NCBI GenBank assembly: GCA_000934665.2
Contig: KZ538306.1
Coordinates: forward strand, 1 to 64,000
DNA length: 64,000 nucleotides
Origin: Catajapyx aquilonaris
Taxonomy: Eukaryota
Direction: 5' to 3'
Shown here: one piece after another, positions 22,577-57,383 of the stretch
Position numbering within the stretch: the first letter of the stretch is position 1
Layout of the letters: every line of letters begins with the position of its first letter
Position numbers and translations under genes: made by a program
Notes under the pieces: model-generated
What the model was told of the DNA's origin: nothing
What the model saw: the letters and a program-made list of their open reading frames with translations, nothing else
Database searches by the model: none

Positions 22577-22743
22577 ATGAGGACACAAGGTATCATTGCT
22601 CCTTCTCTGTCTCCTTCAAAACTGCATGTAACAACTGATATGACATTGCACATAATCGCAACAATGTTTGTTCATCATAGGCTACACGGATGTGCATTGA
22701 AATGATTAGATCCTACACCAAATTTTGGGAAGACAATTTGATG
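22577..22743 (+). pseudogene. Truncated, disabled copy of exons 1-2 of family member C
   Basis: Aligns to 25015-25178; 1-nt insertion after the ATG, first donor changed GT to GC, indels and stops in exon 2; similarity ends at caatttgatg. Confidence 0.8.
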
Positions 22744-24908: not shown

Positions 24909-25014
24909 CGTTCAGCTAAGTGAAAATTCGCCAAATATCTGGCAGTATCAATAGATAAGAGATTGACGAGCAATCTGATATGTCTCAATGACAGGTGACG
25001 TGCCAGTAGCCGCA
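24909..25014. promoter_or_regulatory. Putative compact bidirectional promoter between members B and C
   Basis: 106 bp between divergent ATGs; contains GATA-type words (gtatcaatagataag, ctgata) and caggtgacgtg, all conserved in the duplicate at 22441-22576. Confidence 0.55.
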
Positions 25015-26652: not shown

Positions 26653-26880
26653 TCGTCACTTTTCCAGGACAAGTGTTTAAATAATGAGCAGTCTGTCTAG
26701 TTGTTCAACGTGTAATAAACTTCCATAATATATCTTCTTTTTTTTTACAAAACACATTAGAAATATAACTTGTACACTATCTATATACAGCATTGTCTAA
26801 GTGAAGGCACACAATTTCCTGCAAGTACTCACAACACCTACACTTCACACTGTGGCGGAAGACACATCACTTGGAAGAAC

Positions 26881-28701
26881 CTAAGAGCGAAGTCGCGGCG
26901 GCAGCTTGCAAAGGGCATCGTGAACAGGAAGAGAAATTCCTGCAGCTATCGCAATCCCAACAGCGTCACCCAGAGACGCAACGCCCAACGAGAACGACTT
27001 CTCATCCTCAGGACTCTGCAATAATATATAAAAAAATTAATAATCGCAGCTTCGTTGCAAGTGTAAAATTCCTCACATCTTCTGATATCCTGTAGAAAGT
27101 GTTGACGTACGCAGCTCCTCCGAGCAGTCCCTCCCAAAGCACCAGGACCAGAACCACCCAGAAAGACGGCAGGAATAGGTACACGGCCTCAACCGTAAAA
27201 AGAATCACGTTCAATCCCTGTAAAAAATAATCGGAGCGATGTTTCAGCAAATTTCCATCGTCGTCATAGAAACTAGTTCGGTTGCTACGTCATTTACGTC
27301 AGATTCAAGCTCTCAGCAAACTGACCTGCAGTAAAGCCAGCACCCAAGTCTTTCTGATCTGGAACAAATTAACGGACGATCTCGACAGAAACACTCCAAC
27401 TTGGTAGTCAACTTGTAGCCATCTGTATTGCTCCGCAGTGCTCAGCCATATGCCGTTAAAGTTGATCAACTCCGTCTGTCAAATGCCGCCATTAGTACAT
27501 AAACGGCTAAACGCTTAACACAATGACATACCAATCCTTGATTGATGAAGTACTCGAACAGGTAGACCATCCCGAGCGGAACCATGTACTTGAGCAGCTT
27601 CGGCACGATCCGCAACTTCCGCTTCATGCTCAACGGAGGACTTTCCGCAGGCGGATACTGAACGAGAGGACGGCTGCTTCCGGACTCGGACTTGCAGCAG
27701 GTGAACTTGCTTCCAGGATGCTCCAGCAGGATCCAGAAGCTGGCATGAAAATGATAGTCAAAATTTATTCGCATCTGCACAAAGCAAGGTGCTCACCTGG
27801 CGGCCATAATAACTGGAATGACTAGCATTATGAACAGAGTCGTACGGGGCGTCAACCCAACCTGTTTGCTTGTTAACGCAGCATAAGACAGAGCTCCGAG
27901 TACGCCCGAAGCTCCAGTTCCAGAAGACCACGTTGATATCACATTCCTGATGAGAATTCACGATGTTTAATACTGACATATTCATATTCTCCAATTTTTT
28001 CGTCTGCACCTGTTGTACTTGGACGAGTAGGCAAGGTAAGTGACCTCACCCAGTCCTCCGCAGAGTGCCGCACAAATGACGCCGAGGAAGGCCATCCACT
28101 GCGCTACGGAGAGAGCCACCAGAAGAAAGCTCAAGGTGCACATGCCGATCACCAAAGCACTTCGCAGGCTGCGGAAGAATATGCGCTTTACACATTAATT
28201 GTTGGTGAGACAATATTTCAACTTACTGAACGTTAGTGAAAAGGAAGGGTGCGACAATCTTGATGGCCAATGACGGCAGTATGTCGGCGAGGAGGATCGC
28301 GCCTGTGGAAGTCGGGTTGCAGTCTCTGGTCGAGTTGCTGTGAATTGGGACTGGTTCCGTGCTCTGAAAGTGCATCACATCAAGCACACAATAGTTACAC
28401 TGCACACTTTTAATCAAACAATGTAAACCGCATAAGGACTTACATTACTCTGGAAGTCTGTGCTCAGTATGTCATGTGCCGCACTCAACATAATCACGTA
28501 CGAGTAGTTGTTGCACAGTCCCAGCAACCAGAAAGCGGACAAGTTCCGCCATTTCGAACAGCTGGTCGTCTCCTCTGGGTCGCCGCTAACCAAGTCGGCC
28601 GAGGACTCCGATGCTGCAAATGCAAGAAAGTGATAATGACGCTAATTAGCGCAACAAGGTTTCGTACAACATGTACCTAAACCATTCGCTTCCGGTCCCA
28701 T
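26881..28701 (-). CDS. CLN3: Battenin / CLN3 lysosomal transporter
   Basis: [49 protein letters not shown] region exon, [34 protein letters not shown]; stop TAG at 26881; first coding exon uncertain. Confidence 0.93.
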
Positions 28702-29792
28702 TCTCAACGACACACAATCTGCTACGATTCTTATTAATACTACTCATTCTCAGCCAGATCTTATCACCCTGACCCATCAGACTTTGGACTACTTTGTTAT
28801 CTTTTGGCACATCTTACTGTTGAAATGGAAAGCTCAAGGATAAAGGATGATCAGTCAAAATGAGTATGCTTGCATGTATAAATAACAGGATGTTTTTCTT
28901 TAGCGCCTTAGTCGAAACCATCGCCTCACTTACATTTCGTTGCATCATTCCCAGTAACGTTCATGAAATGTATTCAAATTAGCGTATCTTCAAACTCCGA
29001 CTAATTGCAGTATCTAATGTGTGTAATGACCATCACAGATTTGGGATTGCGCAACCTTCCCTGTGGTAAAGATTACGGCATAAGCCGCCATCACTCAGTC
29101 TTGTCAGAAACAATACCTATTGTTGATCATAGGAATACTTATGCAGGGCAAGAAGTTATCCCAATAAAAAATAAAAGACAATGATTTATCGCAGTTTTTA
29201 CAGACTCTTAACAAGTGTTGCCGAACATTCTGATCGTCCCAAGCAGGACATACTGACAAGTAACCCTGCGTTAAACTGGGCCAGCATTATTAGTATAATA
29301 TGATATCCCATTTGCGCAAATCACAGCTACTTTTTTTTTGCCGAAACATTCTACTTTTTATGACAAAGCAGCCTGGGAACGGTGTCCTGCATCTGCATCA
29401 TCAATATGATCTGTATTTTCCAAAGAGACAATCATATTCCTCCACATCCTGCTCACACTAGGCCACATTATTTATGACCATCATCATTCATTCCTGTCCT
29501 TCACGACCTTCAGCTGCAAACATGCGACTCCTACATATCAGCCAATACTTCCTGTACGAACATGGCGCAAACCAAGACAAACTTTTCTGTGACAGTAACA
29601 CATACTTTTTCTACAAATGTTTAAAGGAACTCCTGCCTATCTGCCGCCATATCAGCAACACACACCTTTGTGAAATAAAACAGGATAACAGAGGCACACA
29701 TCTCAAACAGCTAACGGCTAACTTCTTCAATATTCTTAGCAACCCAATGCTCTGAAACGCTGTATAATTATGGCTAATGATTCCTCTCATTA

Positions 29793-29904
29793 AGGTGCGT
29801 TTACATGTGAGCGATTTGACGAGGGAAGAGCGAGTAGCCCTAGTAACAAATATTGTTTGAGGCGAATATTTCAACCGTCAAATTGCTCACATGTAAACGC
29901 ACCT
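29793..29904. mobile_element. Short MITE (Tourist/PIF-Harbinger-like), copy 1
   Basis: aggtgcgtttacatgtgagcgatttgac ... gtcaaattgctcacatgtaaacgcacct; related copy at 45305-45427. Confidence 0.7.
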
Positions 29905-31083
29905 TTGTTGTTGTTGTTATTATTATCATCATCATAAGCTGTTGGAAATAATAATATATTATTATTATTTCTAACAGCTTATGAGTAAGTTCTTTACCAA
30001 TATTTGTAGGCACCTGTTTCATTGTAATAATTATGGCAATAAAAATCCCTTTATTATTATTATTATTATTATATATACTGAGATAGCCGTGTACACGCTG
30101 GTCGTAGCTTGAGTATGAGATTAATGCTGCAATGTAATGAATGAAGGAATGATTATTATATTTTTATTAATGTAATCTTATTGACGAATGTCCAGTACCG
30201 TTGCAATTAACGAAACAAATGCTTATCACTCGATATACGATGAAGTTGTGTGGAAATGGCACAACATGTGGTATGGTTCTGCCTCCCAGCTGCGTACGTT
30301 CAACCAGACCTGATCCAACTGTTGCGACACGCATTGTGTGCACTGTACAACCCCCAAGCGGTATATGCTTACCCAGCACTCCTGCGTTGCCCATCTCCAA
30401 TTCAGCAGCATCCGACCCCTTCTTCGTCTTCCTACACTGCACAGACCCATACTCCTTATTCGCATCCATCCTGCTGCCCACCCAAGGCTCCAATGATACT
30501 TCCTGCTTGCTGATTCCCCCATCACGTGCGAATATCTGCTGGAAAAAAACGTGTGAAAGTCAGGTGGTGGTATTGTCATCATCACATCTGTTTGATGTGG
30601 GAAGGGCGGAGGGGGAAACAATGGCAGAACAATGCAACCAGTCTAACCGTGGGGAGCAGGGAGCCTCACTCAAACGGGCCGCCAGGTCATACTCCGAATA
30701 ATTGATCCCGTAATCCGGATTATCATTGCGCGCACATGCAACCCAATCGCCAAATAACGCATAAGCTCTCTATCCGCTACCTATAGCCGCTACTTATAAC
30801 CGCTTACTGGTAGCCGCTACTAGTAACAGCTTCGTTGAAATTGAACCCAGATGAATCGCACGGTTTCCGGATCAGTTAATTTCGATTAATTTTTTTGGCA
30901 TAGTTTTTAAGCAATCGTTGCACTTCATTTTTAATGGTTAATTAGTGGTAATTAGTGCGTGCTTGATTTGCAGGGGGAGGTATGGCAACCCTGGGGCGGG
31001 GGCAAATGGCGTCTGTGTGACGGAAGAAAAGGAATAATCGGTCGGATTCGGGGCCGTTCTTTTTCCCTTCCAAGTAGTGCAAG

Positions 31084-33747
<2,664 letters not shown>

Positions 33748-34091
33748 ACCGGACAGTAATCCCACGCCTAATCCCTCATTATTGTGATCCTTCAATCGTA
33801 CACCGCAAATTTTTTTACATTTGATGTGAGGTGAAACATGAAGGTACGCCAGTAGAATCCAACTGCAGTATGTCCGTGTATTTTTTAACGCTAATAAATG
33901 TGCTAGGTTACTGTGAGATGACCTGTTCCATTGATGTAAAATCACTTCAGTTCTTATAATTTAATAGCGATAAAACAGATCACTATGAACAAATTCAGTT
34001 AGAAATTACTTTTCAAAGTGGCAGCTTCAAAGTCCGCATCTCGCTCCGTCTGATAATTGTTATTTTTCTGATTCAATAACTTACGGCAAGA

Positions 34092-37000
34092 TCACTTTTC
34101 GCTTTTGTCACTTCGCCGGCCCCTCTGCCCGGCCATCTCGTCTAGCTTCCCATCCAGCCTCCTCTGCAGATGTGCCCGCTTGGTCCGATCCATCCTTTTC
34201 GGAGGTCCTGCGAACCCGTGCTTGTGTAGCTCTTTCCTGGCGTCGATCTTGGCCAACTGGCCACACCCGTGGGCCTCGGGTATGCTGTGCCCGATGCAGA
34301 AACGCATCCGACAGTGCGGGCAAGTCATCCCTAGAGTGGCCGTCAGCGTCTTGCAACCTTTTGTATTGCAGCGGGTGTCCATGCGCTGAAATTGAGCAAC
34401 CACCGCGTCGAAGTCTTCGTCCTGTCCGTTGGCTGCCTTGGACGGTTTTGACTTCCGCTGACACTGCAGTTGGTGCAAGACCATGTTGGCAGGCGGTACT
34501 TGGTGTCCGCACCGTCCGCATTTGGCTGTGGCTGGCGGAGGGACGGCGGGATCAACTGGACGTGCTGGTTTCTTCTTGTGCGACGGAGGCTTGGCAGGTT
34601 TTGTCCCAGGCGGGTCCTCTTGGCGTTTGGGCTTCGGTTGTAACAGTGGTTCGGCAACCGGCTCTTCCTCAACATCAGACGCAGATTCTGCTGGTGGTTC
34701 TTCTGCTGCTTCCGATCGGTCTACTGGAACTGATTCTGCTTCGGCCTTGGCAGCCTGCCTGAACACGACGATGTGACTGGAAATGACAAAATTTCAGATC
34801 GTTGCAAAATTCATTCCAACCATTGCTAACATACCGATCTTGTCCGTCTCCTTGACTAGTATGCCCCAACCCAGCCTCCTCCGCCAGCATATGTACCAGG
34901 CGTCGCTCCCACGAAGCCAGAGTTGCTGGGAAAGCACGGCTCTCCTCCTTTCCCGCCATCACTTCCGCAAGTTCTTCCACCAGCTGCTTCTTCCTTTCTT
35001 CCTGAACTTCATCCGGAATCTTCTCCTTCTCCGGGACCTTCTCCGCAACTTTTTTGTTGGCCTTCTTCTTCTTGGGCTCGGCTTTGGGTGGGGCCCTGAG
35101 GTCTAAATGGGCCGGCCTGCCTTCGGACACCATCTCCGAGTGATACTGAAATGCGGACCTCACGTCCCCTGCGGAATTGGGAGAGACGATTTAACTTACC
35201 GCTTGTTATAATGAATAATTGTATTTACCTTTTGCAGTGAGGTGCTCCAATAGTGTTGCTAATACAGGATCCTTGCCGACGGTGGCCGAATCTCCAAACA
35301 CAGCCAGCTGTCTTCTGGCTCTGGTAATGGCCACGTTCAGCCGACGATGCTCAGCCAGAAAGCCTACTTCGCCTGTCGAGTTGGATCGAACCAACGACAG
35401 AAGGACGACCTCTTTTTCCCTGCCCTGGAAGCCATCCACCGAACGAATCTCCAGGTTGGGGAAGTCCTGACTCAGACGATGTCGAAGGAGCTCAACCTTT
35501 TTCGAAATGTTCAATTGTATTATCTAACAACCTCACCGCAAAAAGTGCATACCTGCAGATTATATGGCGAGATGATGGCTATCTGTTTCGGCTGCAGTCC
35601 AGACGATATAAGGCTGCGGGCATGGGTAGCAACTAGGTCAGCCTCTCCCTCGTTGCCACGAGAACCAGACGTTCCTGCCTGAACCTCTTCCATCTCGCAT
35701 CCAGCGGTGTCCACAAAAATTATCGTTTTATCTGAAATGTACAGCAGAATATTTTTAATACTGCTTAGTAAACAAATCGTTAGATATTAAGTTACGAGCA
35801 CAATCGCAATGTGTACAACTGAAATTGCAGGAAAATTCATGGCCGTCCATGTACTTTATTTTATTCCAGTTATATCCCTCGACTCAGCTGCCTGTGGACC
35901 TGCAATTTATCATTTGGTGTTTGTGCGGAGGGGATGCCGCCCCAAGGGGACAATGAAAATCCTCGGGGCAATGGCATCCTTCCCTTGGCCTGGCCCCCTG
36001 AATGTCAATATATGACAAACACCTATTGAGCACCTCCGTACCGACCTTGCAGTACACAAGGATGCTAATTATACTATAAAAGTACTTTATCATATCCTGA
36101 ACAGCAGGCTACCATAGCTCACACAAAAGCATTCAGGGTTCCCATGAATATTCAGGATGAATCACTCCACAACTTATATAGCATACCAGTATATCACTGA
36201 ATGTCACCGACTGGCACATATTCAGCGCAATCATATTTATTTCAGAACATGTCCTGTAAAAAAATTGTACCAAATCCACATTCTTATTTGCATATTAACC
36301 TTCTCAAAGTTCTCGGAAGAGGATCTACCTTCATTCTCTTCCGAGAATTATTCCGACATGAACTTGTGTGGGAATTTCCATACATAGATAGCAACTGCAT
36401 CCTAATATAGCACTTGTGAGGTGATTAGCCTCAAGCTCAAGGACTAAATTACATAAATAATACAGGATGTAACTAAATCATTAAATCACTAATACTATCA
36501 TGTATGAAATTAATAAATGGATAATAAATTATTACAGTAATAACTAAATTGGTAATGCAGTACCTACGTAAAAATTAATGCCAATGAATAAATTAAATGT
36601 GGTAATACGTATACACTAAAAATTAATAATGAACAACAAACTCTTTAATGTGCCTATTAAGACTACTGTACAATTCGATGAATTTCAAGGACTATTCAAT
36701 ATAATAAAACTGAAATAATAAATTAATAATACAGGATGTAACTAAATAATTAACATAAAATTAATAAAAAATAAATAGTTAATGATTTCAATAATAACTA
36801 AATTGGCAATGCAGTACCTATGTAAAAAAGTTAATGCCAATAAATTGTGGTAACATATAAATTAATGTGTCTATTAAGATTAGTTCAGTCACTACTATTG
36901 CTGTTGATCTTACTTGTCCAGCAGCAGAAGTTTTTAAAAACATGTGCATGCAATATTCACCGATGAGCATTCCTTCTACTGGTAGATGGGAATTACGTAT

Positions 37001-40000: not shown

Positions 40001-43000
40001 GGAGCTCTTTAAGAGCTGGTTAATATTTACATGACACTAAAGGGTCTGGTTCTTCTTCTTTTTTTTCACAACACTTCTTTTGCAATGTCCAACTTCCTTT
40101 GTGTGACAAAATTACATGTCCGTCGACCTCTCGCATACCAGACAGTTCATAGGATTAGAACTAATGACCTTCCAGAAGGTCTCTGTAATATGTGATCATT
40201 GAATTAATTTATGGCCAAATGTGAGCATTTTTTTTTTGCAAAACCAGGACAAGGGCTAATGTGCGCAAAATTTTTAAAGGGGGTCATGTAGTTACACGAT
40301 CGAAGTCTATATAGAACCACCAATGGATTACGAAGGTCTGCTTACGCAACCTGTGAACAATAGGTTCAAATAAAGTTAATATTATTCAATGCAAAACTTA
40401 CATTGCCAAGACGTAAGGGGAAGGAGGGAGGGTGCAGATCAAAACACCATCATCGTAACAATGCCAAGACGTGCAAGTGCTCTTCTCATGAATATTACTT
40501 GCAACATGTCAAAGAGACGTGCAATGTCCTTCACCTGAATTTGTGATTGTGGATTGAAATGTCACAATATTACATATACTACACTATAATGTTGCGGTTC
40601 AGAAAAGAAGTGACTCCTGCTTCGTGATACGTGCATATTTTATTTTAAATTTACTTATTTATTTTATTTCATTCAATTTGTTTCATTCATTTATTTTATG
40701 TTAATTAATTTGGTTGATATGGGTTATTTTATTTTATTCATGTGTTTTATGTAGGCTAATTGATTATTAATTTGGTTAAGGTGTTACTTAATTTTATTTA
40801 ATTAGGTTCATGTCACTTAATTTTAATCAACTACTCTTGTTTTATTTAATTACCAGAATTACATTAATTCGTTAATTTTACTTATTTACTCATTGATTTA
40901 CTTATTCAAGTATTTACTAATTATATATTTACTTGTTTATTTACTTAATTATTTATTTACTTCTTTAATTACTTATGTACTTATTTATATTGTACATATT
41001 TGTGTCATTTTATTTTATTTATTTATTTATCTACAATATGTTATTTTATTGGTTATTCATTCAGTTAATGTGGAATTTAATTGTATTTAACAAATTTATT
41101 TTATTAATTAGGTTAATGCTATTTATTTCATTGTATTAATTTTATTTGTGTATTAATTTGAATTAATTTGTTAACTTTATTAATAATTTCACTTGTTTAT
41201 TTACTTGTGCAATTATTTATTAACCTTATTTTACCTCATTTATTTATATATGAGCTCCTTAGGGGTGTATGGACATGATATAACTGTGACAAAAAATATA
41301 GCATGCGAAAATAGAATCCCACAGGTCATGTAATCACACTACCTTCTCGAAAAATTAAGTACGGATTTACCTCACATTTCTGGGAAAATTGCGGCCATGG
41401 TCATGAGCAATATTAATCATATATTATGATCATGCAATCTTTCTATTCTTACAAACTAGGAAGAGTTGTTCCCACTGCAAATGAAGTGTGCTTTTTCGCA
41501 TATGTCCGGCAGGATGAAGCTGACACCGCTTCTAGTCCTTCTGGTCTCAGGGATTCCGTGCTGCTACCCGTACATCAGGCCAACCGTGCTTGTCGAAGGT
41601 ACTTTGTGATGCTGTCTCCAACCTGGCAGTGCCACTTTAACAAGCTGCGTTGCAGGTAAAGACTATTGGGAGCAAGTGGGGAGGCAGGAGCTGAAGGCAG
41701 CGTTGAACAGGGAGAGGACGGACAGGGTGGCCCGCAATGTCATCCTCTTCGTTGGAGACGGTATGGGCGTATCGACTGTCACCGCAGGTCGGATATTCCG
41801 TGGGCAGAGGGACAACCATCCGGGAGAAGAAGGGTACCTCAACTTCGAGCGCTTCCCACATGTCGGTTTGCTCAAGGTCCGTTGCAAAAATTTATAATAT
41901 GAAGAACTTGGAACTAAAGCTCCATGTTTCAGACCTACAATGTGGACAAGCAGGTTCCAGACTCGGCAGCTACCGCCACCGCCCTGTTCACTGGGTCCAA
42001 AACTAACTACTTCACTGTCGGTGTTGATGCCAGTGTCAAGTACAATGTGTGCGACTACACCGTGCTTCAACAAGCAAAGCTTGAGAGCATTGCAAGCTGG
42101 GCTCAACAGGCTGGGAAAGACACAGGTATTGCTACATAGATCAACATTGAATAGCCCATATTAATCCTTATTCCTGCGCAGGTATTGTAACCAACACTCG
42201 CATCACTCATGCTACCCCAGCTGCAATGTATGCCAATTCGCCAAGCCGCTTCTGGGAGTGCGATGGTCAGCTACCGGTAGGCAAAGGTTGCACGGACATA
42301 GCTCGGCAACTGGTCGAAACTGAGACTGGACGCAACTTCAACGTTATAATGGGAGGCGGCCAGCTCCAACTGGGGGCTATAACTTCAAGGACTCCTGGCG
42401 GAGGATGCAAACGGTCAGACGGACGCAACCTCACCCAGGAATGGCTCGACGAAAAGCAGGCAAGAAATACAAGCGCCAAGTTTGTCACCAACAGTGGCGA
42501 GCTGTTCGGGATAGATCCTAGTTCAACGGAGTACGTCCTCGGGTTGTTTGCACCCGGACACATGAGTTGGGACCAGGAACGACCGAGGGGTCTGGACGGA
42601 GAGCCGAGCTTGGCGGAAATGACTAGGCAAGCAATTAAGGTGATGAGCAAGAATAAGAATGGGTACGTGCTGATGGTGGAGGGCGGCCGGATCGACCACG
42701 CACATCATCAGAACCTGGCGCTCAAGAGTTTGCAAGAGGTGGTGTCATTCGATGACGCGGTGGAAGCAGCAGTGAAGGAAGCAAGCAGGGATACCCTCGT
42801 GTTAGTCACAGCAGACCATTCGCACACACTCACAATCAACGGATATCCCGAGAGAGGACAGCCCATTGAAGGTCACTTAACCCAAGTTAATTAACATCGC
42901 TTGGTCTATAATACGTAATTATTTCAGGCGCAACGAGTGAACAGGACGGATTCATGTATGAGACCCTGAGCTATTTCAACGGACCTGGGTACAGCACCTA

Positions 43001-46000
43001 TCGTGAGCAGCAGGGTACCGGTACAGACGTTCAGTCAACCTGGCGAGACATTAGGTCCACCAATTTCAGCGATCCAACCCTTCCCCATTTCTCCGCAATA
43101 TTCATGAACATATCTTCACATGGAGGTGAAGACGTCAGCATATACGCACAAGGTAAGAGCCCATTTATTGATGCCACGAGTAATAATAGTTACCCGTAAC
43201 ATAATGCAGCTTCAGTACTATTTTAAAATTCCATGCCGTACTACCCACTCGAATAAAAATACTGATGCGGCACATTTTCATTTTAGGCCCAATGTCGCAC
43301 CTGATTCACGGAGTGCATGAGCAAACCTACCCGGCATACGTAATTGCGTACGCAGCGTGCATAGGACCTTACACTGATAACTGTGCACGTGATCTACCAC
43401 GACCGGATCCAATCAGACCGTCCAAAGCAACTCTGACTGCCAGTGTTAATAGCCTCGCAATTATTCTAGTGGCACTAGCAATAGTGCTTTAGACTTTTGT
43501 GTTAATGCCGCCCTCTGTGAGTGCCAATTTGTAGAGTGATGTTTGTTAATATTCATGCATTAAAAAGCATGCCTGCGTTGTACTAATATGTTCTTGATGA
43601 ATCCCAGTCGATATACAGTATTACCGTCAAGCGGGGTTGACTTTGTGACAAAATCAGTATTTTTCAAATCTCAGGCCACAATTATTTTTAACGTTTTCGC
43701 CGCAACTGTCCCCAGTAGTTGGCTAAGAAATTATATAAAATGATGTAAGATTGAACTTGTTTTGTAGAAGATACGAGGGTGTTAGACTAAGTTCGTAGTT
43801 TTGCAGGGTGACTTTGTGACAGCAGCAGCTTGTCGCGAAGTCCATCGGATCTTATTTAATAATAATAATAATAATAATCCGGGTAGTGCACGAACTCCTT
43901 GCGAGTTATATGGCACGGACCCTTATTACTCATATACATAGTATACATCAGGACCAGATAACGTAGCACCCGGGCCCATGGGCAGGGTAACAGGAGGGGA
44001 TGTGCAAGGTGCAGTGCAATGTCTTAACTAGGCCATTTTTAGTGAACTCCCCCGGGTGGTTTAGTATGTTGGAAATACCACCCGAGACGAAGCCAGAGGT
44101 GACCCTGAACTCTGCACAAGATGAAGGGGGTGTCCCCGGGTTGGGATCGAACCCGGGACCTTAACATCCGTGGGCGCATACGTTACCGCAGCACCACTCC
44201 GCCTCCCTTTATAGTTTTGACCTACATATCAGTCCTTTTCAACTCGAAATTATAAAAACCATAAGTCAGGCAACAAAATCAGCCACCGAGGATTTGAACT
44301 ATAAGAAAATGACCAAATGTTTTTCATAACATTAAATTGTGACTGACCATTCTGTAAGTAACATATCATTTCTACGCCTACCCATGTAAAAATGATATGT
44401 CGGAAAATAAAGAGTTTGTGGAGTTACTTTGTTATAATTTCTGTCCCTCATGTTTAGCCTTAAAGAAATGAACATTGTCGCAGTCCTTTTCAACAAATGT
44501 AAATATTTCTGTAATGTATCAAGTTATGATCTGCAATGCAAATAGGTAGTGAAAGGATGGTACGAAAACAAAATATGAAACCATTTCTAGTGATCCGAAA
44601 AACTTCAAAAAATTGTCACAAAGTCACCCCCCCCCCCACGAAATAGTGACTCACCAGTGTCGTCCGTCTCTTCCACCCCTTCCAAATCGCACAAACGACG
44701 TCCTTTCACCGACTCATGGGCAACGAGCCTCCCTTGATAGAACTTCCCAGATGACCACTCCATAATATCCTGGTGCATCCTGTACTGCACGGTGAGCATC
44801 CTCACAGCCTGGTCTCCAAACAGGTTGATGGCCCTCTCTATCAAACTGGTGGACAATCCTCGCTTAGATGCCTCTTGGCTCACCACGGTCGGCGGCAACT
44901 GATGCGGATCACCTGCCAGCACCACCTTGCTTCCAGCCCACAGCATGGCGGCCCAGCAGCTGGTCTCCAATGCCTGGGAGCACTCGTCTATCACCACGAC
45001 TCCAAAGTGAGGACGCCCCAATTCGGTGTGAGGAACGTTGCGTAAGGGACCGTCGTCTCCTGACGTGGACAAGGTGGCCAACACAACAGGTGCATTCTTA
45101 AGGGTTTCTCGGAGAGAGTTGGTCTCACGCTTACGAAATTCCTTCCGCAGCGTCTTGCACTCGGTGCGGAGACGATACCGCTCCGACTCCTTCCGGCAAC
45201 CCCTGAAAAATGAGTGAAATTGCATTCGATGGTTCACATGTAGCATTATAACGTCCAAAAATCTGCATTGTGTCATTTTGCACAAAATTATATTCACTTG
45301 TATTAAGCCGCGTTTACATGCGAGCGATTCGCTCAGCAATTACACCAATTGTTGATTTTCACTCCCAAACAATTGATATCAATCGCTGCATATTGCTGAT
45401 CAAATCGCTCACTTGTAAATGCAGCCTCATGCAACTTTGTGTACTGATGTGACGTCACAAATGTTTCAATAGCAACACTGCGACTATAATGCAAAACTCA
45501 AGTCGCCGGATCTCACCTGAGCTTCGTATGTGCCACATCTAGTTCCTTCCTGACATCCCGCAAGATCTCGGCCTGATCCCCTTTGGCAAGCACCGCATCC
45601 AGAGAGTATTTCTGAAGCTCCTTCATCAGCCTAGCGGGATGCCCCAACCGCACCAATCCGGGGCATTCAGTAGCAAGCCTCTCCGCCAGGTTGTCAACAG
45701 CCACGTTGGAGGGAGCACACGCCAGTACCTTCTCCCCAGATCTGAAAAGTAAAATTGCCAAGCATCACACTTCGGCTACAAGATTGTTAACGATTATTTG
45801 TGCTGCTGTTGTTATTATTACCGGACACATTGAAGAATAAACTCTGTCACGGTTGTCGTCTTTCCTGTTCCAGGCGGCCCATGTATGACCCCAAATTCCC
45901 TCTGGCACAATGCAAATCTGACAGCCTCCTTCTGCGAGTCGTCCAGGCTTGTATTGTAGTACGCCAGCTGTCCCTTTGAGTCCACGATGGCAGGCGGTAA

Positions 46001-46531
46001 GGTAACATGTGGGGACGACAACTGTCCAGAGTTGAACATTAGTTCTAGAAACAAATTTCCAGTCTTTTCCGCAGCTTCCAGCCGATCCAGCGCCCTTTTG
46101 AGCCTCCTGTACGTTACATCGTTGGCCAACTTGACCAGCTGGTACGTCCCGCTATCCTCCAACTCCAGTACATCCCAGGTGTCCTCAAACGACACGCTCA
46201 GCCCTGAATCTCCACTGACATGACTCAGAACACCGGTTGCGACGTAATCAGTCGACCGACTCGACCTGACCCCTATGATGTCCCCGCTGCTCATAGAGTG
46301 TGAAGGCAACTTGCAGTCCTTCATAGGCTCGAACGTGACCACGCATCGTCCGAACAGCCCAGTACAATGGGATCCTACCCTCAGTTTCAACAAGGAAACG
46401 CCCTTTTGCTGCAGCTGCTTTGGAGACAGCTCCTTCAGCAGTTCCTGGGACTCCTGGATCTCTGCCTGACGCTCCAAAGACAGCAGCTCGCGCTGGGTGG
46501 CCACAAAAGACTCCACAGTACTTCCAGACAT
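34092..46531 (-). CDS. IGHMBP2: DNA-binding protein SMUBP-2, SF1 helicase with R3H and AN1 zinc finger
   Basis: [98 protein letters not shown]3H ([18 protein letters not shown]), AN1 ([20 protein letters not shown]). Exons approximately 46531-45822, 45742-45517, 45203-44656, 35731-35552, 35496-35229, 35168-34833, 34776-34092. Confidence 0.95.
38236..38922 (+). repeat. Degenerate interstitial (TTAGG)n-like tract, interrupted by MITE copy 3
   Basis: ggttaggttagg variants interspersed with gagag; TTAGG is the common arthropod telomeric unit. Confidence 0.8.
38328..38689. mobile_element. Mutator-like MITE, copy 3
   Basis: Same TIRs and interior as copies 1 and 2; 9-bp flanking duplication ggttaggtt. 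Confidence 0.9.
40635..41252. repeat. AT-rich low-complexity tract (ttat/ttac-like)
   Basis: Strongly T-biased degenerate simple repeat. Confidence 0.8.
41514..43492 (+). CDS. Alp: Alkaline phosphatase, probably GPI-anchored, nested in an IGHMBP2 intron
   Basis: Signal peptide [30 protein letters not shown]; catalytic [46 protein letters not shown]; hydrophobic tail [13 protein letters not shown]. Confidence 0.95.
43620..44645. mobile_element. Non-autonomous DNA-transposon relic with a nested SINE
   Basis: Termini ggggttgactttgtgacaa ... ttgtcacaaagtcacccc; a further gggtgactttgtgaca word at 43806; no transposase ORF. Confidence 0.55.
43858..44209 (-). mobile_element. tRNA-derived SINE, copy 1
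   Basis: Minus strand reads agtggtgctgcggta (A-box-like) ... gggttcgatccc (B box), body homologous to 54460-54827, (ATT)n tail. Confidence 0.85.
45305..45427. mobile_element. Short MITE, copy 2 of the 29793 family
   Basis: gcgtttacatgcgagcgatt ... aatcgctcacttgtaaatgc. Confidence 0.6.
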
Positions 46532-46620
46532 CTTTTTAAGATTAATTTTCACAAAGATTTGTAACGTTCCAAATGTTTCGAACACTTCATGTGAAGGCGG
46601 CCATGTTGGAAAAGAAAAAG

Positions 46621-46878
46621 TATCGATATGTAGAATTACTTATATATCGATATTCATATACTGAACCATGTGCTAAAATATCGATACGTAGAAACACATT
46701 CATATCGATATTATAAAACATCAATATATCGATATTCATATACTGAAACATGTGATAAAATATCGATATGTGGAAACACCATTATATCGATATTGTAACA
46801 AAAATATCGTCACTGAAAACTGAAATATCGATAGTTTATACTTAAAAATCGATACCAGAAACGTAAATATATCGATAC
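46621..46878. repeat. Array of about nine TATCGATA words upstream of IGHMBP2
   Basis: TATCGATA recurs about every 20-40 bp; the word equals the Drosophila DRE (DREF site). Confidence 0.75.
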
Positions 46879-48881: not shown

Positions 48882-49764
48882 TCAATCGTCTGCAATTAAA
48901 ATTATTTTTTTTGTAAATTTAAAAAAAGTGCCTCATATTAATTGACTGTGCATTAATAATACAATGCGACATGTTTTTCGACCTTTTCCCAGAGGTAAGT
49001 GCTGAGTATAGTGTGTACGGAAGTTTTCCTGCAAGCGTAGCGTTGGAAATAAGTGCATCGCTTATTTTACCAGTACTCCATCAACCATACAGAGAGATTG
49101 CCAGACATCATTGATAATGCCAACCGTGCAATCTGCGTGGATTGTGTTGCGCACTCGGTTGCGCTCTTTTAAAAAATAAATAAATAAATAACATCAGAGC
49201 TATAGTACAATCTGGCGTGTTTTTCGCTATTTTTTTCACTCCCAGTGATAAGTGGTAGTGTACGGAAGTTTCATGCGCAGAGAATCCTCCTGAAAACGTG
49301 CGAAACAAGTTTACGCAACACGCAATTCTCTGCAAAGCACCACCTATTCCGCGTCGAGAAATATATATAAATTACATAACAGTTCGTGGCAGCTAAGTTT
49401 GTGGCTATATTAAATATGAAACGGTGTAACTGTTAACACAATTTGAACTGTGTTGAATATTTTGACACACAAATTGTGTCGTTGCGTTTTGTGAATACAG
49501 CTTGTTGATTATAAGCCTAGTGGTGTTTGTATAGTATTTCCAGGGCTGTATGAACGGCGGGTCATTAGAGTTCACTGACAGCAAAGGGCCTCTTCTGCGG
49601 CTGCGGGGCAGGAGGGGGGTGGTAAAAGGCGGGGCTGCTGCAGCCTCACAAAAAAAAAGAAAGAAAGAAAGATAAAAAAATATATATCCCACAGTAGATG
49701 GGGAAGAGAAGCTGACGCGGCAGAGGAAGGCTCTCTGAGGAGGAGAGACGGACTTGCCAACATC

Positions 49765-51245
49765 ATGTCTCCTGTGCTGGAGGTTGCTTGTCTTATTCTG
49801 CTGACGTTGGCTGTGGTCGACGGCACCAGTCAGTTCCCCGATTTCTACACCTTCACCGTCAACGACATCAAGGGAAATCCGGTGCAACTAGAGAAGTACA
49901 GAGGGAAGGTCCGTACTTGATGAGCTAGGTCACGTTACGTTACGCTGCAAGGCCACGTTAGCAGTCACGTTACGATGTAAGGTCACGTTACGCCAGTTGT
50001 TACGTTACGTTGCCAGGTCACGTTAGTAGTTACGTTACGCCAGTCGTTACGTTACGTTACGCCAGTCGTTACGTTGCCAGGTCACGTTAGTAGTTACGTT
50101 ACGTTGTAAGGTTACTTTACGCCAGTCGTTACGTTACGTTGCCAGGTCACGTTAGTAGTTACGTTACGTTGTAAGGTTACTTTACGCCAGTCGTTACGTT
50201 ACGTTGCCAGGTCACGTTAGTAGTTACGTTACGTTGCAAGGTCACATTAGTAGTTATAAATATAAAAAAGAAATCGGTGCCACAATATATTTCTGCGGAT
50301 GAGACGATATATCATAAGAAAATATTTTTTTTAAAACTAAATTTTGGGTATTTAGACTCAAAAAAAATGCAGTTTTCGGACTCTTCCCTAAGTCAACGGT
50401 ATGTAAGACGTCAGCGTGCCAAGTTTCAGGACTCTCAGTAGTCCGGAAGTGGATTAGGTAGCCATGACATATACATAAATACTGTACCAACAAACTTTCT
50501 GCTTTATATACTGTAAGTTCCAGTTATGTTGCAAGTTGCTAAAATTTTCCATGGCTGTTCAGGCAGGTGGTTCACCTGAAACGTTGCGGCTTTTTGAAAT
50601 TCCCAGTCACCTGTGGTTATTCAGTGACGTGTGAAACCACTTGCCGTGACACCTCTCACATGTCATGCTTCACGAACTGTCCCATTATTAGCATCCATTT
50701 ATATGAACATTCTCATACGTGACAGGTGACACTGGTTGTTAACGTCGCAAGTCAGTGCGGCTACACTGATGCTCATTACAAGTCGCTGAAGAGGCTGCAC
50801 GACATACTGAGCTTCAAAGGGAAGTTTTCGGTCCTGGCCTTCCCTTGCAACCAGTTTGAAGAGCAGGAACCGTGGGACAATGAAGTGATCGAGGAGTTTG
50901 CTACCGGACAGTACGGAGTCGAGTTCCCCATGTTCAGCAAGGTGGACGCTATTGGTGAAAACGCCGAACCTGCCCTGAAGAACTTAATAGGTCCGTTCGA
51001 CTTGTACATACCGCATTACTTGCAATACCTTTACCAACACAACGCTCCTTACAGATCAGTCGTCCGTGGCGCCTGACTGGAACTTCTACAAGTACTTAGT
51101 CGGCATGGACGGACGTGTCATCAAAGCATGGGGAACCAAAATAGGAATTGAAGACATTTTCGACGAGATCAAAGCTGCTGTGGACAAAGCTGAGGCGGAG
51201 GAAGAAGAGCGGCAGGAAAATTCATCGGACAAGGACGAACTGTGA
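49765..51245 (+). CDS. GPX7: Glutathione peroxidase 7-like (Cys type, ER-retained)
   Basis: Exons 49765-49908, 50726-50990, 51055-51245; signal peptide; LEKYRGKVTLVVNVASQCGYT (Cys codon TGC), VLAFPCNQF, PDWNFYKYLV; ends KDEL*. Confidence 0.92.
49928..50255. repeat. (GTTAC)-based satellite with a roughly 60-bp higher-order unit, GPx7 intron 1
   Basis: gttacgttacgttgccaggtcacgttagta recurs four or more times. Confidence 0.9.
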
Positions 51246-51983
51246 TGCCCACCATTCCCACCACCCAACTCACGGACTTCCATTACGTTAGCCAGTAGTA
51301 CGAAAAAGTGAATGTGCCTTCCTCTTTTGCATGTGGGTATTGTTGTGTACTTATTTATTTTTTTGGAGTAGGTGTTAAAATGAGTCACTGATTTACTATG
51401 GTGCTGTGTGGCACTTTTGTGAAATGCCTTCTGTACTACTGACAGGTGGATTTTTTAATTTTATATGCCCCCCCCCCCCAAAAAAAAAAAGTTTTCCCTA
51501 ACTAAGGCGCGACTGAACGGAAGACCCATTTGGTAATACTCAAAATATTCCTGATACAATGTCAAGACCCACCTTTTACAAGTTACAGAGGCAATGTTCT
51601 ATAGCAATGTCCGCACATGTAGGTTTGGTCTCGAGGATTTTTATTCAGGGAACTTGTGCAATAAAGGGTCAGGGATCTTCTGGTGCAGGGGTTCTCTTGG
51701 TGATGCAGGGTCAGTTCATACCATCCGCATTATTGGCATCACTCGTATTTACTTAATCGTGCATTTAAATATTTTTTTCTGCTGTACTTTTAGCGAGAAG
51801 TGTACTTACAGTTGGAGAAAATTTGGAATACAAGTCAAGATATCGTTTTATTTTTTAATTTTTTCTTTATTTTTCCAAACAGGGAAGATTGTGTGGTGCA
51901 CTGATCCTACAATTTGGCGAAAATAAAGTTTAAAAAAAAAAACAAACGGTAGCGAAAAACAGGCTACGAGGACTTCATCTCCA

Positions 51984-52056
51984 GGCAATTTGAGAAGCTT
52001 CCCCGGGACAGCCGTCTCGACGACTTTACCTGTCCCGAATCATATGTCAACCTGCC
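51984..52056 (-). promoter_or_regulatory. SECIS element (type II) in the SPS 3'UTR
   Basis: Minus strand: GGCAGGUUGA-cau-AUGA-UUCGGGACAGGU-AAA-GUCGU-CGAG-ACGGC-UGUCCCGG-GGAA-gcuuc-UCAAAUUGCC. This gives helix I, an AUGA/GA core, 12 nt to an unpaired AAA, and an apical mini-stem. Confidence 0.85.
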
Positions 52057-52516
52057 TCGAGATAAAAAAAACTCCCTCTTTTGAAGTGGGCTAGAAATAA
52101 TTCTGCCCTTGAAATCACCTTTCTTTTTTTTTTTGTCTAGCATTTTTTTAAACATATTTTTCTATTGAATCCCATTGTTATTTTTCTTTTCTTAAAAATT
52201 CCACAAGACTGCATTGACCTACTGTCTACAAAAATACGTGAACTTCACTCATCTCCGTCACCTTTTCTTGAATTATATTTTTGTGCCTGGATGACCAAAT
52301 TTTTTTATATCGGCAAAGGAAAAAAGAAAAGAGAGAGACAAAAACCAAATTTTAAAAAATACAACCAGGAACTATCGCGACAGGAATGTGTTTTAACTAT
52401 TTCGATGGGAACAAAAAAGATTTGCACGAGTTTGAAGATAAATTTTGTCCTGACCGTTATCATCAATTGTACAAAAAATTTAAAGAGTCATTCATGATCA
52501 GCTTTCTTTTTTTTTT

Positions 52517-54780
52517 TTACCACAGTTCCCCATCTTTCTCCTTGGCCGGAACCTCGATGACCCGAGGCTTGTCGATTATCCGGGCTGTGCGGTTGCCCTT
52601 CTCCACGATCCCGATGATCCAGGCTTGGTAGCTCTCCTGCTTCTCAATGTCCTTGCAATACGCGGCTGCCTGTTCTCTAGGCAGGCAGATCAGCAAGCCG
52701 CCTTCCGAGAAAAGATAGCCATTGTGAAACACGAATCGCAAATTGTATGGTTACAAAAAAAAAAGCTGCAACATGGCTCACCCGATGTTTCCGGCGAGTG
52801 TCCCTGCAGCAGCTGGAACATGTTTCCGCACGCCTTTGCGACGGCCGCCATCTTCGCGATCACCGGTAGATTGTGTATGACAAAGGACACTTCGTTCTTC
52901 TGGTGTTTGGCCAAGTTCTGGGCGTGCCCCAGGAGACCGAACCCAGTGACGTCTGTGGCCCCGTGGGCGTTGTATTTGTGCATGAGTCGGGCGGACGTCC
53001 TGTTGAGCCGCGCCATGGAGTCCATGGCCCTCTGGTAGGATTTCCGCACGTCCTCCTCCGACACCACCAGCTTGATCCGGTTCCACCTGTCCGGCTGGTC
53101 CAACCACTGGTGAGCGTTGACCGCTACCTGAGTCCCGAGGGGCTTCGTAAGGACCAGTACATCACCCACCACTGCATTGTCAGGACTGCCGACAAAAAAA
53201 AAAAATTAGCTAAAAACATGAGCACCAACCGAGGTGAATCTGGAAATGAAAAGACGAACGCTTACACAATGAATTCGTTGGGCTGGCATACGGTTGTGGC
53301 TACTCCTCCGATGGTGCACCAGGGATTCATAACTGTTTGGCCACCCATCACATTCGTGCCAGCTTCATACGCCGCATCCTGTGAAAAATCGCATCGGTGA
53401 CATATCCTCTAGATTTGTACTGTAACAATGCATTGCCCTAGAACCAGCACAGGAAGTCTATAGATTCCAAACTTGCACAATTAGATCAGTATACTCATCA
53501 GAATTAACTCAAGGTCAGTTCGTATAAAAATAACGACCTCGAAGAGTGCGGATATCACTGCAGCAAATGAACCTAGGCAACCTAGAGACGTCACTAATCA
53601 GCATGTGACTTGTCCCTTCAAGCCCCTCTCAGCCGAGTACAGGCCTACTTATACCTTGAATCCTCTCATCATGAGGGGAATGACTACGTCTCTCTCCTTT
53701 TCAGTCATCTTGGTTGACACGGCCAGCAGCATAAGCATGTTGTCGCACTCGGTCACTCCCATGGCATACATGTCACTTAGTACGTTGGAACAGGCGATCT
53801 TACCTACAACAAACCACCTGAATTACGCTTGCCGTTAACGATTTAAGAAATGCCAAGTAATATCTACTACGAGAAGTCCTTTTTTTAACCCTGTAATGCC
53901 CACTGGGTCATATCTGGCACACAATTTAGTGCAATTTTTATATTTCCTGTAAGTGCCAAATTGCTCTAAATGGTGTGCCAGATATGACCCAAGGGGCATT
54001 ACAGGGGTAAAATGCAAAAAAATTAATGCAACTGTCAGAAGGCCAATTACTTCCGTTCCTGAAATGGAGTGAAATTTAAGCGCTTCTCGAAAGTAGAAAC
54101 CTTTGATTTCTTAAGCTGACAGTTCAACTGAACGAGAAAAAAAAGACGATGATGATGGGTTGAAATTTTTTTTAAAAAACTTCTGATTGTTAAGTTTTAC
54201 CCATCATGTACGGGTCTTCAACAAGGGGATAGAAGAAATCGGTTGTCTGCACCAAAGACAACCCGCCGTGGCGGAGGGGTACAACACAAGCATCCATGCC
54301 AATCCCTGAAACGAGAAGAAAAAAAATATGCATCCCCCGTTAAGTCTCAAACACAGCTTTCAACATAAATTAGCAGCTCGTACAGTCGAGATTTTTATTA
54401 TTATTTTAAACACTTCATTTACCGACATTATCTGCATTCACCCGATATTCACTATAGTCAAGGGGAGAAGAAGTGGCGCCGCGGTAACGCGCACGGCCAC
54501 GGATGTTAAGGTCCCGGGTTCGATCCCAGCCCGGGGACACCCCCTTCATCTCGTACAGAGGTCGGTCACCTCTGGCTTCGTCTCGGGTGGTATTTCCTAC
54601 AAACTAAACCACCCGGGGGAGCTCACTAAAAATGGCCACACGTCAGATGCACTGCACTTGCACATCCCCTCCTGTCATCCTGCCGGTGGGCCCGGGCGAT
54701 ACGTATAAAGGCTCCAATGTACACAACAAATAAAGGTCCATGCGATAAACCCTGATAGGGTGAAAGCATTACCCAACCAA

Positions 54781-54833
<53 letters not shown>

Positions 54834-55500
54834 CTATAGTCTACGTGGCAATTTATTGCAATGAAATGTATTGCGCATCGTACGCTACATCATGTTTTTA
54901 ACGGCTCACCTAATAGCGGGTAACGTGTCAGTCCGGCTCATTCGGGCCATGCTTTGTCTATACACTTGCTGATTAGGCCCAGCTTCCCCAACCGCCATGA
55001 TTGATCCTTTTTTTTTTGTAGAGGGTGGCTCCACCTACCTCCCATACAAAATAAGAAAAAAAGATCCCTAGTTCCCATCCTGGCAAAACCATGGGGGACA
55101 GTCAAGGACAAATTCCCCCCTCCAACCGGCCATTTATATTTTTCCTCCTCTTTCGAGAGCCGCTCACGTGTTCTCTGTACACTTTGAACGTACCGATCCT
55201 GGGTATGGCCATCTGCATGAAGTGCGCGTGCTCATGATCCTGTCCGCCGGCCCCTCCTGCGTTGTTGGCCTCGTCGGCCACCAGTCCCTCCAGGAGCTTG
55301 CAAAGAACCTCCTGGGGGACCTTACACCCTCATCCTTTCAGGTCCGTGAACCTGGTCAGTCGGAAGCCGGCGTCCAGGTCATGAGCCGCGGGGTCGAAGG
55401 GGCGCCGCAGGGCCAGGGCGTTCGGGTTGGTCCCCAGCTCCAGCTGGGCGGCGGCCGCCACCGCCTCCCCCGCGCCGCCCTGCCCGTCCTGCTGCGACAT
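52517..55500 (-). CDS. SelD: Selenophosphate synthetase with in-frame UGA (predicted selenoprotein)
   Basis: Exons approximately 55500-55194, 54305-54201, 53803-53654, 53378-53266, 53185-52783, 52701-52517. [24 protein letters not shown](TGA 55332-55330)-[54 protein letters not shown]; ends EKDGELW*. Confidence 0.95.
53889..54006. mobile_element. piggyBac-like MITE in an SPS intron
   Basis: TTAA-ccctgtaatgccc...gggtcatatctggcacac ... gtgtgccagatatgaccc...gggcattacaggg-GTAA; TIR of about 45 bp; TTAA target with one mismatch on the right. Confidence 0.75.
54460..54827 (+). mobile_element. tRNA-derived SINE, copy 2, with TSD
   Basis: A-box-like agtggcgccgcggta, B box gggttcgatccc, (TTA)n tail, 14-bp TSD tattcactatagtc (54446-54459 and 54828-54841). 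Confidence 0.9.
55284..55320 (-). promoter_or_regulatory. SRE-like stop-codon redefinition hairpin 9 nt downstream of the SPS UGA
   Basis: UGA GGGUGU AAG GUCCC-CCAGGAG-guucuuugcaag-CUCCUGG-a-GGGAC: a 12-bp GC-rich stem with one bulge. Confidence 0.75.
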
Positions 55501-57383
55501 CACCACCGTCTGAACCCGGTTCAGCTCCGGCTGCTGCAGCTGCAGCACCGCCGATATCTCCTGCGGTAGGGCCGCCACGGCTGTCGCTTTTGGATTCCGA
55601 CTCTGCCCCTCCCGGTCCTCCTCCCGACTCTCTCTCTCTCTCTAGAGGTTGGCTACACTTTTTGGTCGCCCCAACGCGGCTCGACTCCCCACTGCAAAAT
55701 GGCGTGCTCCCCTTCCCTCTCAGGGTGGCGTAGCTCTCCAACCAAGCTGTGAACAAGCCGTCCACTAAAACGCATAGCTGCTGCTTGAAACAGCTGCCAC
55801 ACCATACTTCCCAGCGTGGCACTAAGCTGCTTACGATCCCAATAGCTGCTTACAGTCACCCGGATGAAGACGCTGCCCCGGTTTTAAATTTTTGCAAGCG
55901 GCGCTCTGATTGGTCCGTCCGTTCCCGCGTTTGGAGGCGAGGGAGCGGCGAGTATTTTGAGAGAGGGGAGCCACAGGGGTGGGATTGGGGCGTCGATCGG
56001 ACCGGCTTGTTGATGGGGTTCGAACCGGAGGAACTACGCCTCGGGGCGGCCCCTGGTCCGTCTTCATGGGTGCTTGAGGATCTGGTCTATCCTTCCAGAG
56101 CGTTTCCAGGCCGTTTCCGAGCTGTGGTACGGCGCCGGTAGTTCGCGCCTGTTTTGAGACAAGTGTACCGTGCCCTGAGCTTGGAATTACGATGGGTTTT
56201 CCATGCGACGACGACGAGACATGAAAAATTTTCCGCTTCCCACACCAACCGGCTATTAAATTTTGTTGTTGTTGTCTGGCCTGGTATTACCACGTGCGTT
56301 CTCATTTTTTTTTGCAATGATTTTTTTTTATTTTTAAGAAAGAAAGTTTGGCGCGAACATTTTTCGCGCGGATCGAGTTTTTTCGTTGGCTTCTTCACAC
56401 CTGTTGGGGGTTTACATGTTGCGTGCGAGATTGGCATGCATCATGGACCGACAAATATATTAAATTGGGGCATTATAATTTCTCCCTCCCTACATATATG
56501 GTCTCTGGATGAATAAATAATTCTGATGTTTTTTGTGAATATTTTTGTACGCGCATTTTTTGTGGAGTCGTAATTGTTTATTTTTTCCCCTCTCTAAACG
56601 GCTCTGAGAATGGATGAATAAAATACTGATAAAAACGAAATGAATTATATTGTACGCGTTTTTATGGACTCGACGATTGTTAATTTTTTCAGCTCTAAAC
56701 GGCCCTGAATGGATGAATAAATAATGCTGATTAAACCACGCAATGAATTTTTTTGTACACGTCCTATATTATATGCACATGCAGCTTACAGCACACTCAT
56801 GATAGAGCATGTGGAAAACGTATGGGGTTATTGTTGTGATTACAGTTAAAACTGGCAATAATAATGATGGCACTTAGCAACGCATGAATAACTGGGTTGT
56901 CTTCTCTCTAAGCTCAAGTGGAACGTCGTATAAAAATTGATTGTTATGGAGCTATAGTTATCTGCCAATATGTATATATATTTTTTAAAAAATTCAGAAG
57001 CTGTACGTGCAAGCATAAGTATTATGATAAATTAACGGCAACACACTGATTTGCTGATCTCCAAAAGGGTGAGTCCGAGTACAATCAGGTTGTGTAATAA
57101 AATACAGTACTCACATCATAACTTTTCAAAAAGTAGGCGGTGACCTCTGCCCATCCACTTTACAACCTTGATTCGTGGATCAGAGGGTTGGTACAGTGAT
57201 GTCCATAAGAAATCTCTTTGAAACCCATGCCGTGTATTGCGTAACAGAGGTCGTAATAATTAGGAAATGCCTCCTTTTTTTTGGACAAGTTATGATTTTG
57301 AGTATACTGCATTTATAAAAAGTTCAAAAACAGTTTTCCAGATAACCCTGCTGCCTCCTAATAAGACATTGTGAGCTTCAGAC

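Follow-up and report, generated by a model that had tools for sequence, protein, structure and literature searches.

In this study, we analyzed a stretch of 64,000 nucleotides from the genome assembly of Catajapyx aquilonaris (GCA_000934665.2, contig KZ538306.1, positions 1 to 64,000 of the forward strand; hereafter the window), whose minus strand carries a gene of the SelD/selenophosphate synthetase (SPS) family. Its six exons are separated by five introns, all of them GT-AG, and their spliced frame contains a single internal stop, the TGA at codon 57 (Table 1). The exon translations matched the NCBIfam selD profile (TIGR00476) collinearly (profile positions 1-29, 40-78, 75-121, 122-159 and 162-263), and exon 5 alone reached 104 bits (E 8e-30); the profile was scored exon by exon, and its 125-bit cut-off, which concerns the whole protein, was not applied to these scores. 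The Pfam domains AIRS and AIRS_C were also matched, with the last exon corresponding to positions 108-154 of AIRS_C. Four signals known from selenocysteine (Sec) recoding accompany the gene: the in-frame TGA, a GGGTGT hexanucleotide, a hairpin of the Sec redefinition element (SRE) type and a Sec insertion sequence (SECIS)-like element in the 3' untranslated region (3'UTR).

Table 1. Features of the selenophosphate synthetase gene in the window
Feature	Position	Strand	Details
Coding gene, six exons	55500-52517	minus	1263-nt spliced frame, 420 codons
Span in spliced contig	51700..55687	minus	5'UTR, six exons, 3'UTR; run X5, record 25
Exon 1, coding part	55194..55500	minus	ATG at 55500; contains TGA, hexanucleotide and SRE; selD profile 1-29
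In-frame TGA, codon 57	55330..55332	minus	Sec/Cys site of SelD (G-X-G-C-K)
GGGTGT hexanucleotide	55324..55329	minus	directly 3' of TGA
SRE-type hairpin	55283..55321	minus	13 pairs (6+7, one bulged A), 12-nt loop region
Exon 2	54201..54305	minus	frame, selD profile, spliced contig
Exon 3	53655..53803	minus	frame, selD profile, spliced contig
Exon 4	53266..53378	minus	frame, selD profile, spliced contig
Exon 5	52782..53185	minus	AIRS_C domain, selD profile, spliced contig
Exon 6, coding part	52517..52701	minus	TAA stop 52519-52517; AIRS_C; spliced contig
SECIS-like element, form 2	51975..52065	minus	fold, descriptors, model R1, spliced contig
Canonical poly(A) signals	51640..51871	minus	AATAAA 51871, 51852, 51645; ATTAAA 51859; all downstream of SECIS

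Both the gene model and the TGA were examined in sequencing-run contigs aligned to positions 51700-55800, which came from four of the five public runs matching the stretch, none of these runs being listed as RNA. Three of these are DNA runs from one sample, and run X5 belongs to another sample and study, its kind of run not being stated. One X5 contig (2385 nt), which begins at 55687, was aligned with 0 differing letters and 0 gaps and joined exactly across all five predicted introns, the ends of which read CT..AC on the plus strand, that is, GT..AG on the gene strand. Because this contig skips precisely the predicted introns, the gene model was confirmed by a transcript-like assembly. The exon-exon joints were not present in the DNA runs, and X5 depth was zero in 3 of 30 bins, every one of them intronic. 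Exon 6 was continuous to 51700, so the SECIS-like element lies inside the spliced contig, and another 118 letters past 51700 placed the mRNA end near 51582, giving a 3'UTR of ~935 nt that contains the proposed SECIS. Two checks suggested in the preliminary description of this stretch, namely whether the TGA is a sequencing error and whether the SECIS belongs to the mRNA, could thus be answered from the same contigs. The exons showed 0 differing letters in the three DNA runs, with the limit that contigs lose rare variants, and the TGA is no sequencing error because it was unchanged in the contigs of these runs and in the X5 spliced contig. No second allele-like copy of the exons was found among the DNA contigs aligned at 90% likeness, a level that a diverged paralogue would escape. 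The reading of the TGA as an artefact of assembly or sequencing, or as a null allele, with the gene then being a pseudogene or else an ordinary form with Cys or Arg, has practically no probability left: apart from the agreement of the contigs, which rules it out as far as contigs can show, 363 open codons follow the TGA and the same TGA was found in 37 of 66 related loci.

The TGA stands in the context TDLKG[TGA]GCKVPQEVL and, in the alignment with 66 relatives, shares a column with their Arg, Leu or TGA codons. The preliminary description had placed it in the G-X-G-C-K site, followed immediately by GGGUGU, and had quoted several protein motifs; all of these were found as described, the motifs being present in the translation. 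Its 12-bp hairpin was recovered too, although with 13 pairs. The hairpin starts 9 nt after the TGA and is considerably more stable than expected (74-nt stretch: minimum free energy (MFE) -34.1 kcal/mol, z -3.07; 0 of 200 shuffles equally stable), and the same hairpin was kept when 70 nt of upstream context were added (149-nt fold). A three-stem fold resembling the hymenopteran readthrough element (HRE) was considered and rejected, because the larger 149-nt fold was not significant (z -1.25); the element is therefore best described as a plain SRE.

Such signals have been described in detail for metazoan SPS genes, in which separate duplications of an SPS2 containing Sec gave rise to SPS1 genes (Mariotti et al., 2015, PMC4561486; statements on this work refer to the sections of the paper and its supplement used here). 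SRE and HRE stem-loops occur 3' of the UGA, and the hexanucleotide GGG-UG[C/U] was reported as ultraconserved in SPS1-UGA genes, scattered in other metazoan SPS2 and absent in insect SPS2 (PMC4561486). The class of unduplicated SPS2 (uSPS2), explained in supplement S5, likewise has a Sec-site UGA, an SRE, the hexanucleotide and a protein constrained like SPS1 (Mariotti et al., 2015). Its signal combination, GGG-UG[C/U] after the UGA plus an SRE stem-loop, was found in the window gene. Vertebrate and insect SPS2 (SEPHS2, Drosophila SelD2/SPS2) share with it the catalytic-site Sec-UGA and the SRE and have a 3'UTR SECIS, to which the SECIS-like element of the window gene would correspond, but are fast-evolving after duplication, and insect SPS2 is without the hexanucleotide, whereas the window gene is slow-evolving and keeps it. 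Human SEPN1 also has an SRE (Howard et al., 2005, cited in PMC4561486), a stem-loop placed a few nt 3' of a Sec UGA; it was experimentally tested, whereas the window hairpin is predicted.

In the 3'UTR of the window gene, the core of the SECIS-like element (52043-52000) begins with an AUGA 474 nt past the TAA stop, the distance from the stop to the base of helix I being 452 nt. Form-2 SECIS elements have an AUGA/GA non-Watson-Crick quartet, a helix II of ~9-12 bp, an unpaired 5' AA and an apical mini-stem. The MFE fold of 52065-51975 has the features of this form: helix I, AUGA at 52043-52040, a 10-bp helix II, an unpaired GUAAA, an apex with a 3-bp mini-stem and a 5-nt loop, and a 3' GA at 52001-52000, which lies opposite UGA in a fold whose energy model cannot show the quartet. 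This fold was unusually stable (MFE -41.4, z -4.37; 1 of 200 shuffles equally stable). A type II element had been expected about 460 nt after the true stop; the type stood, and the distance proved approximate.

We then evaluated the specificity of our own SECIS descriptors. The strict descriptor gave five matches in the window versus 2.1 +/- 1.3 in 40 block shuffles (maximum 5), and its count alone is not above chance because the shuffles also reach 5; its sole zero-mismatch match in 128 kb was the element at 52065-51975. The energy-based descriptor had four matches in 128 kb, that is, three besides this element, and showed no discrimination among relatives (5 of 37 TGA-type and 4 of 28 Arg-type loci), the four Arg-type matches (L058, L059, L061 and L062) representing one identical element. 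A looser version matched 14/33 versus 6/26 loci. These descriptors are too unspecific to carry the SECIS claim. We next trained a covariance model, R1, on nine 3'UTR elements from relatives, with the window excluded; its training elements were chosen with our own SECIS descriptor, and its E-values are rough. R1 found a single match in the window at E<=10, at 51988-52055 on the minus strand (19.8 bits, E 0.019). The element was scored by R1 but by none of the Rfam SECIS families.

To place these signals in a wider context, exon 5 was used to query metagenome and metatranscriptome contigs, which yielded 80 related loci. The recoding site was covered in 66 of them, comprising 37 with TGA, 28 with an Arg codon and one with Leu. 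GGGTGT followed the TGA in 36 of the 37 TGA-type loci, the exception being L064 (GGCTGC), whereas Arg-type loci encoded the same Gly-Cys with varying synonymous positions and had GGGTG[CT] in only 5 of 28. A similar difference was observed for folding of the 66 nt from the TGA: the mean MFE was -26.4 (mean z -3.67) for 27 distinct TGA-type sequences, window included, versus -17.4 (mean z -0.31) for 22 distinct Arg-type sequences encoding nearly the same peptide. The SRE is therefore supported by synonymous-site conservation and by the contrast with Arg-type loci, not by compensatory change. With R1, 22 of the 80 loci were matched, all on the gene strand and 13 of them outside the training set. 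By type, matches were found in 17 of 37 TGA loci and in 5 of 14 loci whose contig did not contain the site, and in none of the 28 Arg-type loci or the single Leu-type locus. Four TGA loci of the insect clade (L001, L002, L003 and L005) had no R1 match in 730-2334 nt downstream, which is the appearance expected of SPS1-UGA genes. Thus, the hexanucleotide and the hairpin accompany TGA, not Arg, across the 66 related loci, and SECIS-like elements accompany only the non-insect TGA genes.

Several side observations were made in the same set of loci. Candidate SECIS elements with a 5' core UUGA, not AUGA or GUGA, were noticed in L044, L046 and L048 (~1300 nt after the stop), where R1 gave 19.8 bits, and in L042 (917 nt after the stop), which R1 did not match; these loci lie in a clade that also includes the Leu-type L078. 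The Arg-type contigs L043-L069 (17 rows), L010, L021 and L057 have lost the hairpin and had no SECIS match. In the tree described below, the 17-row Arg clade adjoins TGA-type, SECIS-bearing contigs outside the named insect clade. An independent origin of this 17-row clade was considered. Placing all Arg rows in one clade was rejected (p-AU, approximately unbiased test, 0.00018), this group having been named post hoc and cutting across the insect clade, but in the cleaner test, joining the Arg clade with the insect SPS1 clade was not rejected (p-AU 0.41), which leaves an independent origin no more than a possibility. Further arthropod duplications were mentioned as 'not shown' by Mariotti et al. 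(2015, PMC4561486).

At the protein level, the gene had been described as SPS1-looking, and this impression was borne out: the whole protein shared 88% identity over 405 residues with a hemipteran SPS1-Arg ('inactive selenide, water dikinase-like protein'), and exon 5 was 96-97% identical to ant, wasp and bee proteins (97% to ant SPS1) and 89-94% identical to crustacean, scorpion and millipede proteins. Such a look is expected for an unduplicated SPS2, because SPS1 keeps the parental constraint (PMC4561486). In a quick maximum-likelihood tree of 67 rows, in which insect SPS2 rows were not included, the window gene fell outside the starred insect SPS1 clade (15 rows; Shimodaira-Hasegawa-like approximate likelihood ratio test (SH-aLRT) 95) and within an unresolved 24-row group with malacostracans (amphipod, decapod and isopod; SH-aLRT 83). 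The top identity in this set was to a decapod (90% over 326 columns).

These data bear directly on the possibility that the gene is an SPS1-UGA paralogue whose UGA is read through without Sec, of the kind known from Hymenoptera and some Paraneoptera. In that case, the stem-loop in the 3'UTR would resemble a SECIS by chance or be a relic in decay, and a second, fast-evolving gene, the SPS2, would be located at another place in the genome. The TGA, GGGTGT and hairpin are the exact signature of SPS1-UGA genes, and the insect members (Hymenoptera, Rhodnius, Pediculus; with HRE) share with the window gene the UGA codon, GGG-UG[C/U], a downstream hairpin and high, SPS1-like protein conservation. A SECIS-like hairpin would also be met by chance about once per 32 kb according to the energy-based descriptor (three others in 128 kb), and the element went unscored by Rfam. 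However, insect SPS1-UGA genes are without SECIS (PMC4561486) and have an HRE readthrough element, whereas the window gene shows a simple downstream hairpin and has a SECIS-like element in its transcribed 3'UTR. That element is the sole R1 match in 128 kb, on the right strand and inside the 935-nt 3'UTR, and R1 matched 0 of 28 Arg-type and 0 of 4 insect-clade TGA loci. Moreover, the window gene stands outside the insect SPS1 clade, and the matching published row was listed as an unduplicated SPS2 (PMC4561486). We therefore consider an SPS1-UGA paralogue quite improbable.

On the other hand, the reading of the gene as a Sec-type SPS that keeps its recoding kit, which had been put forward in the preliminary description and agrees with the SelD family assignment, the spliced mRNA including the SECIS-like element and the R1 match, has to be weighed against several results. 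The Rfam SECIS families had no match in 49000-57000 (E<=1) or in 51940-52100 (161 nt, E<=10), and no curated SECIS model has scored 52065-51975. The R1 test is partly circular, because the window element also satisfies the descriptor by which the training set was chosen. Among the TGA-type loci, 20 of 37 had no R1 match; nine of these had <400 nt after the stop, four were the insect-clade loci L001, L002, L003 and L005, and seven with a 3'UTR of 523-1326 nt were still unmatched. For the SRE, 89.2% of alignment cells were paired compared with 88.6% in shuffled alignments (39 of 500 shuffles reached the observed value), and only one pair was altered on both sides, so that covariation was not significant. 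All of these points count against the reading. Slid registers of the SRE gave 37-63% paired cells. The Rfam families also had no match in 20 related loci (E<=10), and because these loci were likewise unmatched, we read the silence of Rfam as low model sensitivity.

Taken together, the gene is very probably SPS2-Sec, the selenoprotein form, of a hexapod-grade arthropod, and it is already listed as Catajapyx_aquilonaris.SPS2. This name is the first row of evolutionary.insects.fa in supplement S8 of Mariotti et al. (2015, PMC4561486), and figure SM5.1, where it is one of the SPS2 rows that come ahead of the insect SPS1 rows, and the gene tree of that paper treat it as an SPS2 that falls immediately outside the insect SPS genes as a whole. 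Compared by eye, ~295 nt of the row, counted from the ATG, equal exon 1 of the window gene, including TGA GGGTGT and the hairpin (lower-case letters in the file), and to the extent of these ~295 nt, the only part compared, the two genes are the same. Both the gene and the dual-function idea discussed below have thus been known since 2015 (Mariotti et al., PMC4561486), and the 'unduplicated' status of the window gene rests on the class published for this matching row, as judged from the sequence match. No further literature joining Catajapyx with a selenoprotein was found in the collection of papers searched, and the term SPS1-UGA was found only in the 2015 paper and its preprint.

According to the SPS2-Sec interpretation, the six exons are spliced to an mRNA of ~2.4 kb, in which the UGA of codon 57 is most likely decoded as Sec. 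The predicted 3'UTR SECIS would recruit the Sec insertion machinery, while the GGGUGU context and the SRE hairpin would slow termination and favor recoding; enhancement of recoding by such elements has been reported (Howard et al., 2005, as cited in PMC4561486). The predicted product would be a 420-residue Sec enzyme making selenophosphate.

A further proposal adds to this interpretation and does not conflict with it: the same UGA might give both the Sec enzyme (SPS2) and a SECIS-independent readthrough protein with another residue and SPS1 function, a role that belongs to separate genes in insects and vertebrates. The preliminary description, in its inference of such a dual-function gene, restates an idea put forward by Mariotti et al. 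(2015, PMC4561486), who observed an inverse relation between the hexanucleotide and the presence of an SPS1 paralogue and regarded hexanucleotide plus SECIS as 'an indicator of a double function' (supplement S6). Our comparison offers some points in its favor: GGGTGT is fixed at synonymous positions in nearly all TGA-type loci, including the SECIS-less L001, L002, L003 and L005, and not in Arg-type loci, and in its degree of conservation the protein equals the SPS1 proteins of insects. However, both the hexanucleotide and the hairpin might act in Sec insertion only, and the sections of the 2015 paper used here give no peptide across the UGA. An mRNA isoform lacking the SECIS, as speculated there for the dual function (PMC4561486), is without sequence support because no canonical poly(A) signal was found between the stop and the SECIS, where only the variants TATAAA (52309) and AATATA (52279) occur. 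Overall, a dual output of this gene is possible but doubtful. If it exists, one mRNA with one UGA might yield two enzymes, by SECIS-dependent Sec insertion (SPS2) or by readthrough with a standard residue promoted by the hexanucleotide and SRE (SPS1), and because the canonical poly(A) signals all come after the SECIS, the choice would be made at the ribosome on SECIS-containing messages, perhaps set by selenium supply, and not by way of SECIS-less isoforms as in the speculation of the 2015 paper. We regard this specific scheme as rather unlikely.

Nevertheless, the gene offers a good natural test of the published idea that a single UGA provides two functional proteins before duplication separates them. 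If this were true, the ancestral dual state would persist in this hexapod lineage, which sits directly outside the insect duplication and would be the natural choice for such a test. The raw sequence alone was also enough here for all parts of a eukaryotic Sec recoding kit to be recognized. Automatic annotation tends to truncate such genes. The guess that this would happen fits the relatives, many of whose database records (crustacean, scorpion and millipede) start downstream of the UGA site and have 315-327 residues. Relative to the sections of the 2015 paper used here, in which no SECIS is described for this species, our additions are modest: the exact position of the SECIS-like element, its placement in the spliced transcript and the exon-intron structure in this assembly, together with the distribution of the signals across the related loci.

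Two introns of the gene contain repeated sequences. In intron 1, positions 54440-54713 belong to an extremely high-copy repeat (summed depth ~180,000-320,000 versus ~20-35 in the flanks in the DNA runs), at which many variant contigs break and which is probably a short interspersed nuclear element (SINE); positions 54480-54560 on the plus strand looked tRNA-like by eye, with no tRNA call by ARAGORN, which found 0 tRNA genes in the 64-kb window. Intron 2 includes a near-perfect palindrome of ~100 nt (53896-53999; contig depth ~16,000-35,000 in the DNA runs) with sub-threshold matches to mir-548 (33 bits, gathering 90) and mir-2011 (30 bits, gathering 80), which looks like a miniature inverted-repeat transposable element (MITE), not a microRNA gene.

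Finally, the SPS gene has a tail-to-tail neighbor on the plus strand (49579-51245) that appears to encode a protein of glutathione-peroxidase-like sequence, with an active-site Cys, not Sec (NVASQCGYT), and a C-terminal KDEL. This predicted protein resembles the GPx7/8 type. Other genes seen in the list of open reading frames were a phospholipase-C-like gene with long Ser/Asp/Arg runs (3206-8764, plus strand), an actin-related protein (32200-33376, plus), an alkaline phosphatase (42151-42894, plus) and an IGHMBP2/SMUBP-2-like helicase (45818-46639, minus), whose exon at 45821-46531 had top matches of 42-50% identity across echinoderms, vertebrates, molluscs, a copepod and a spider.

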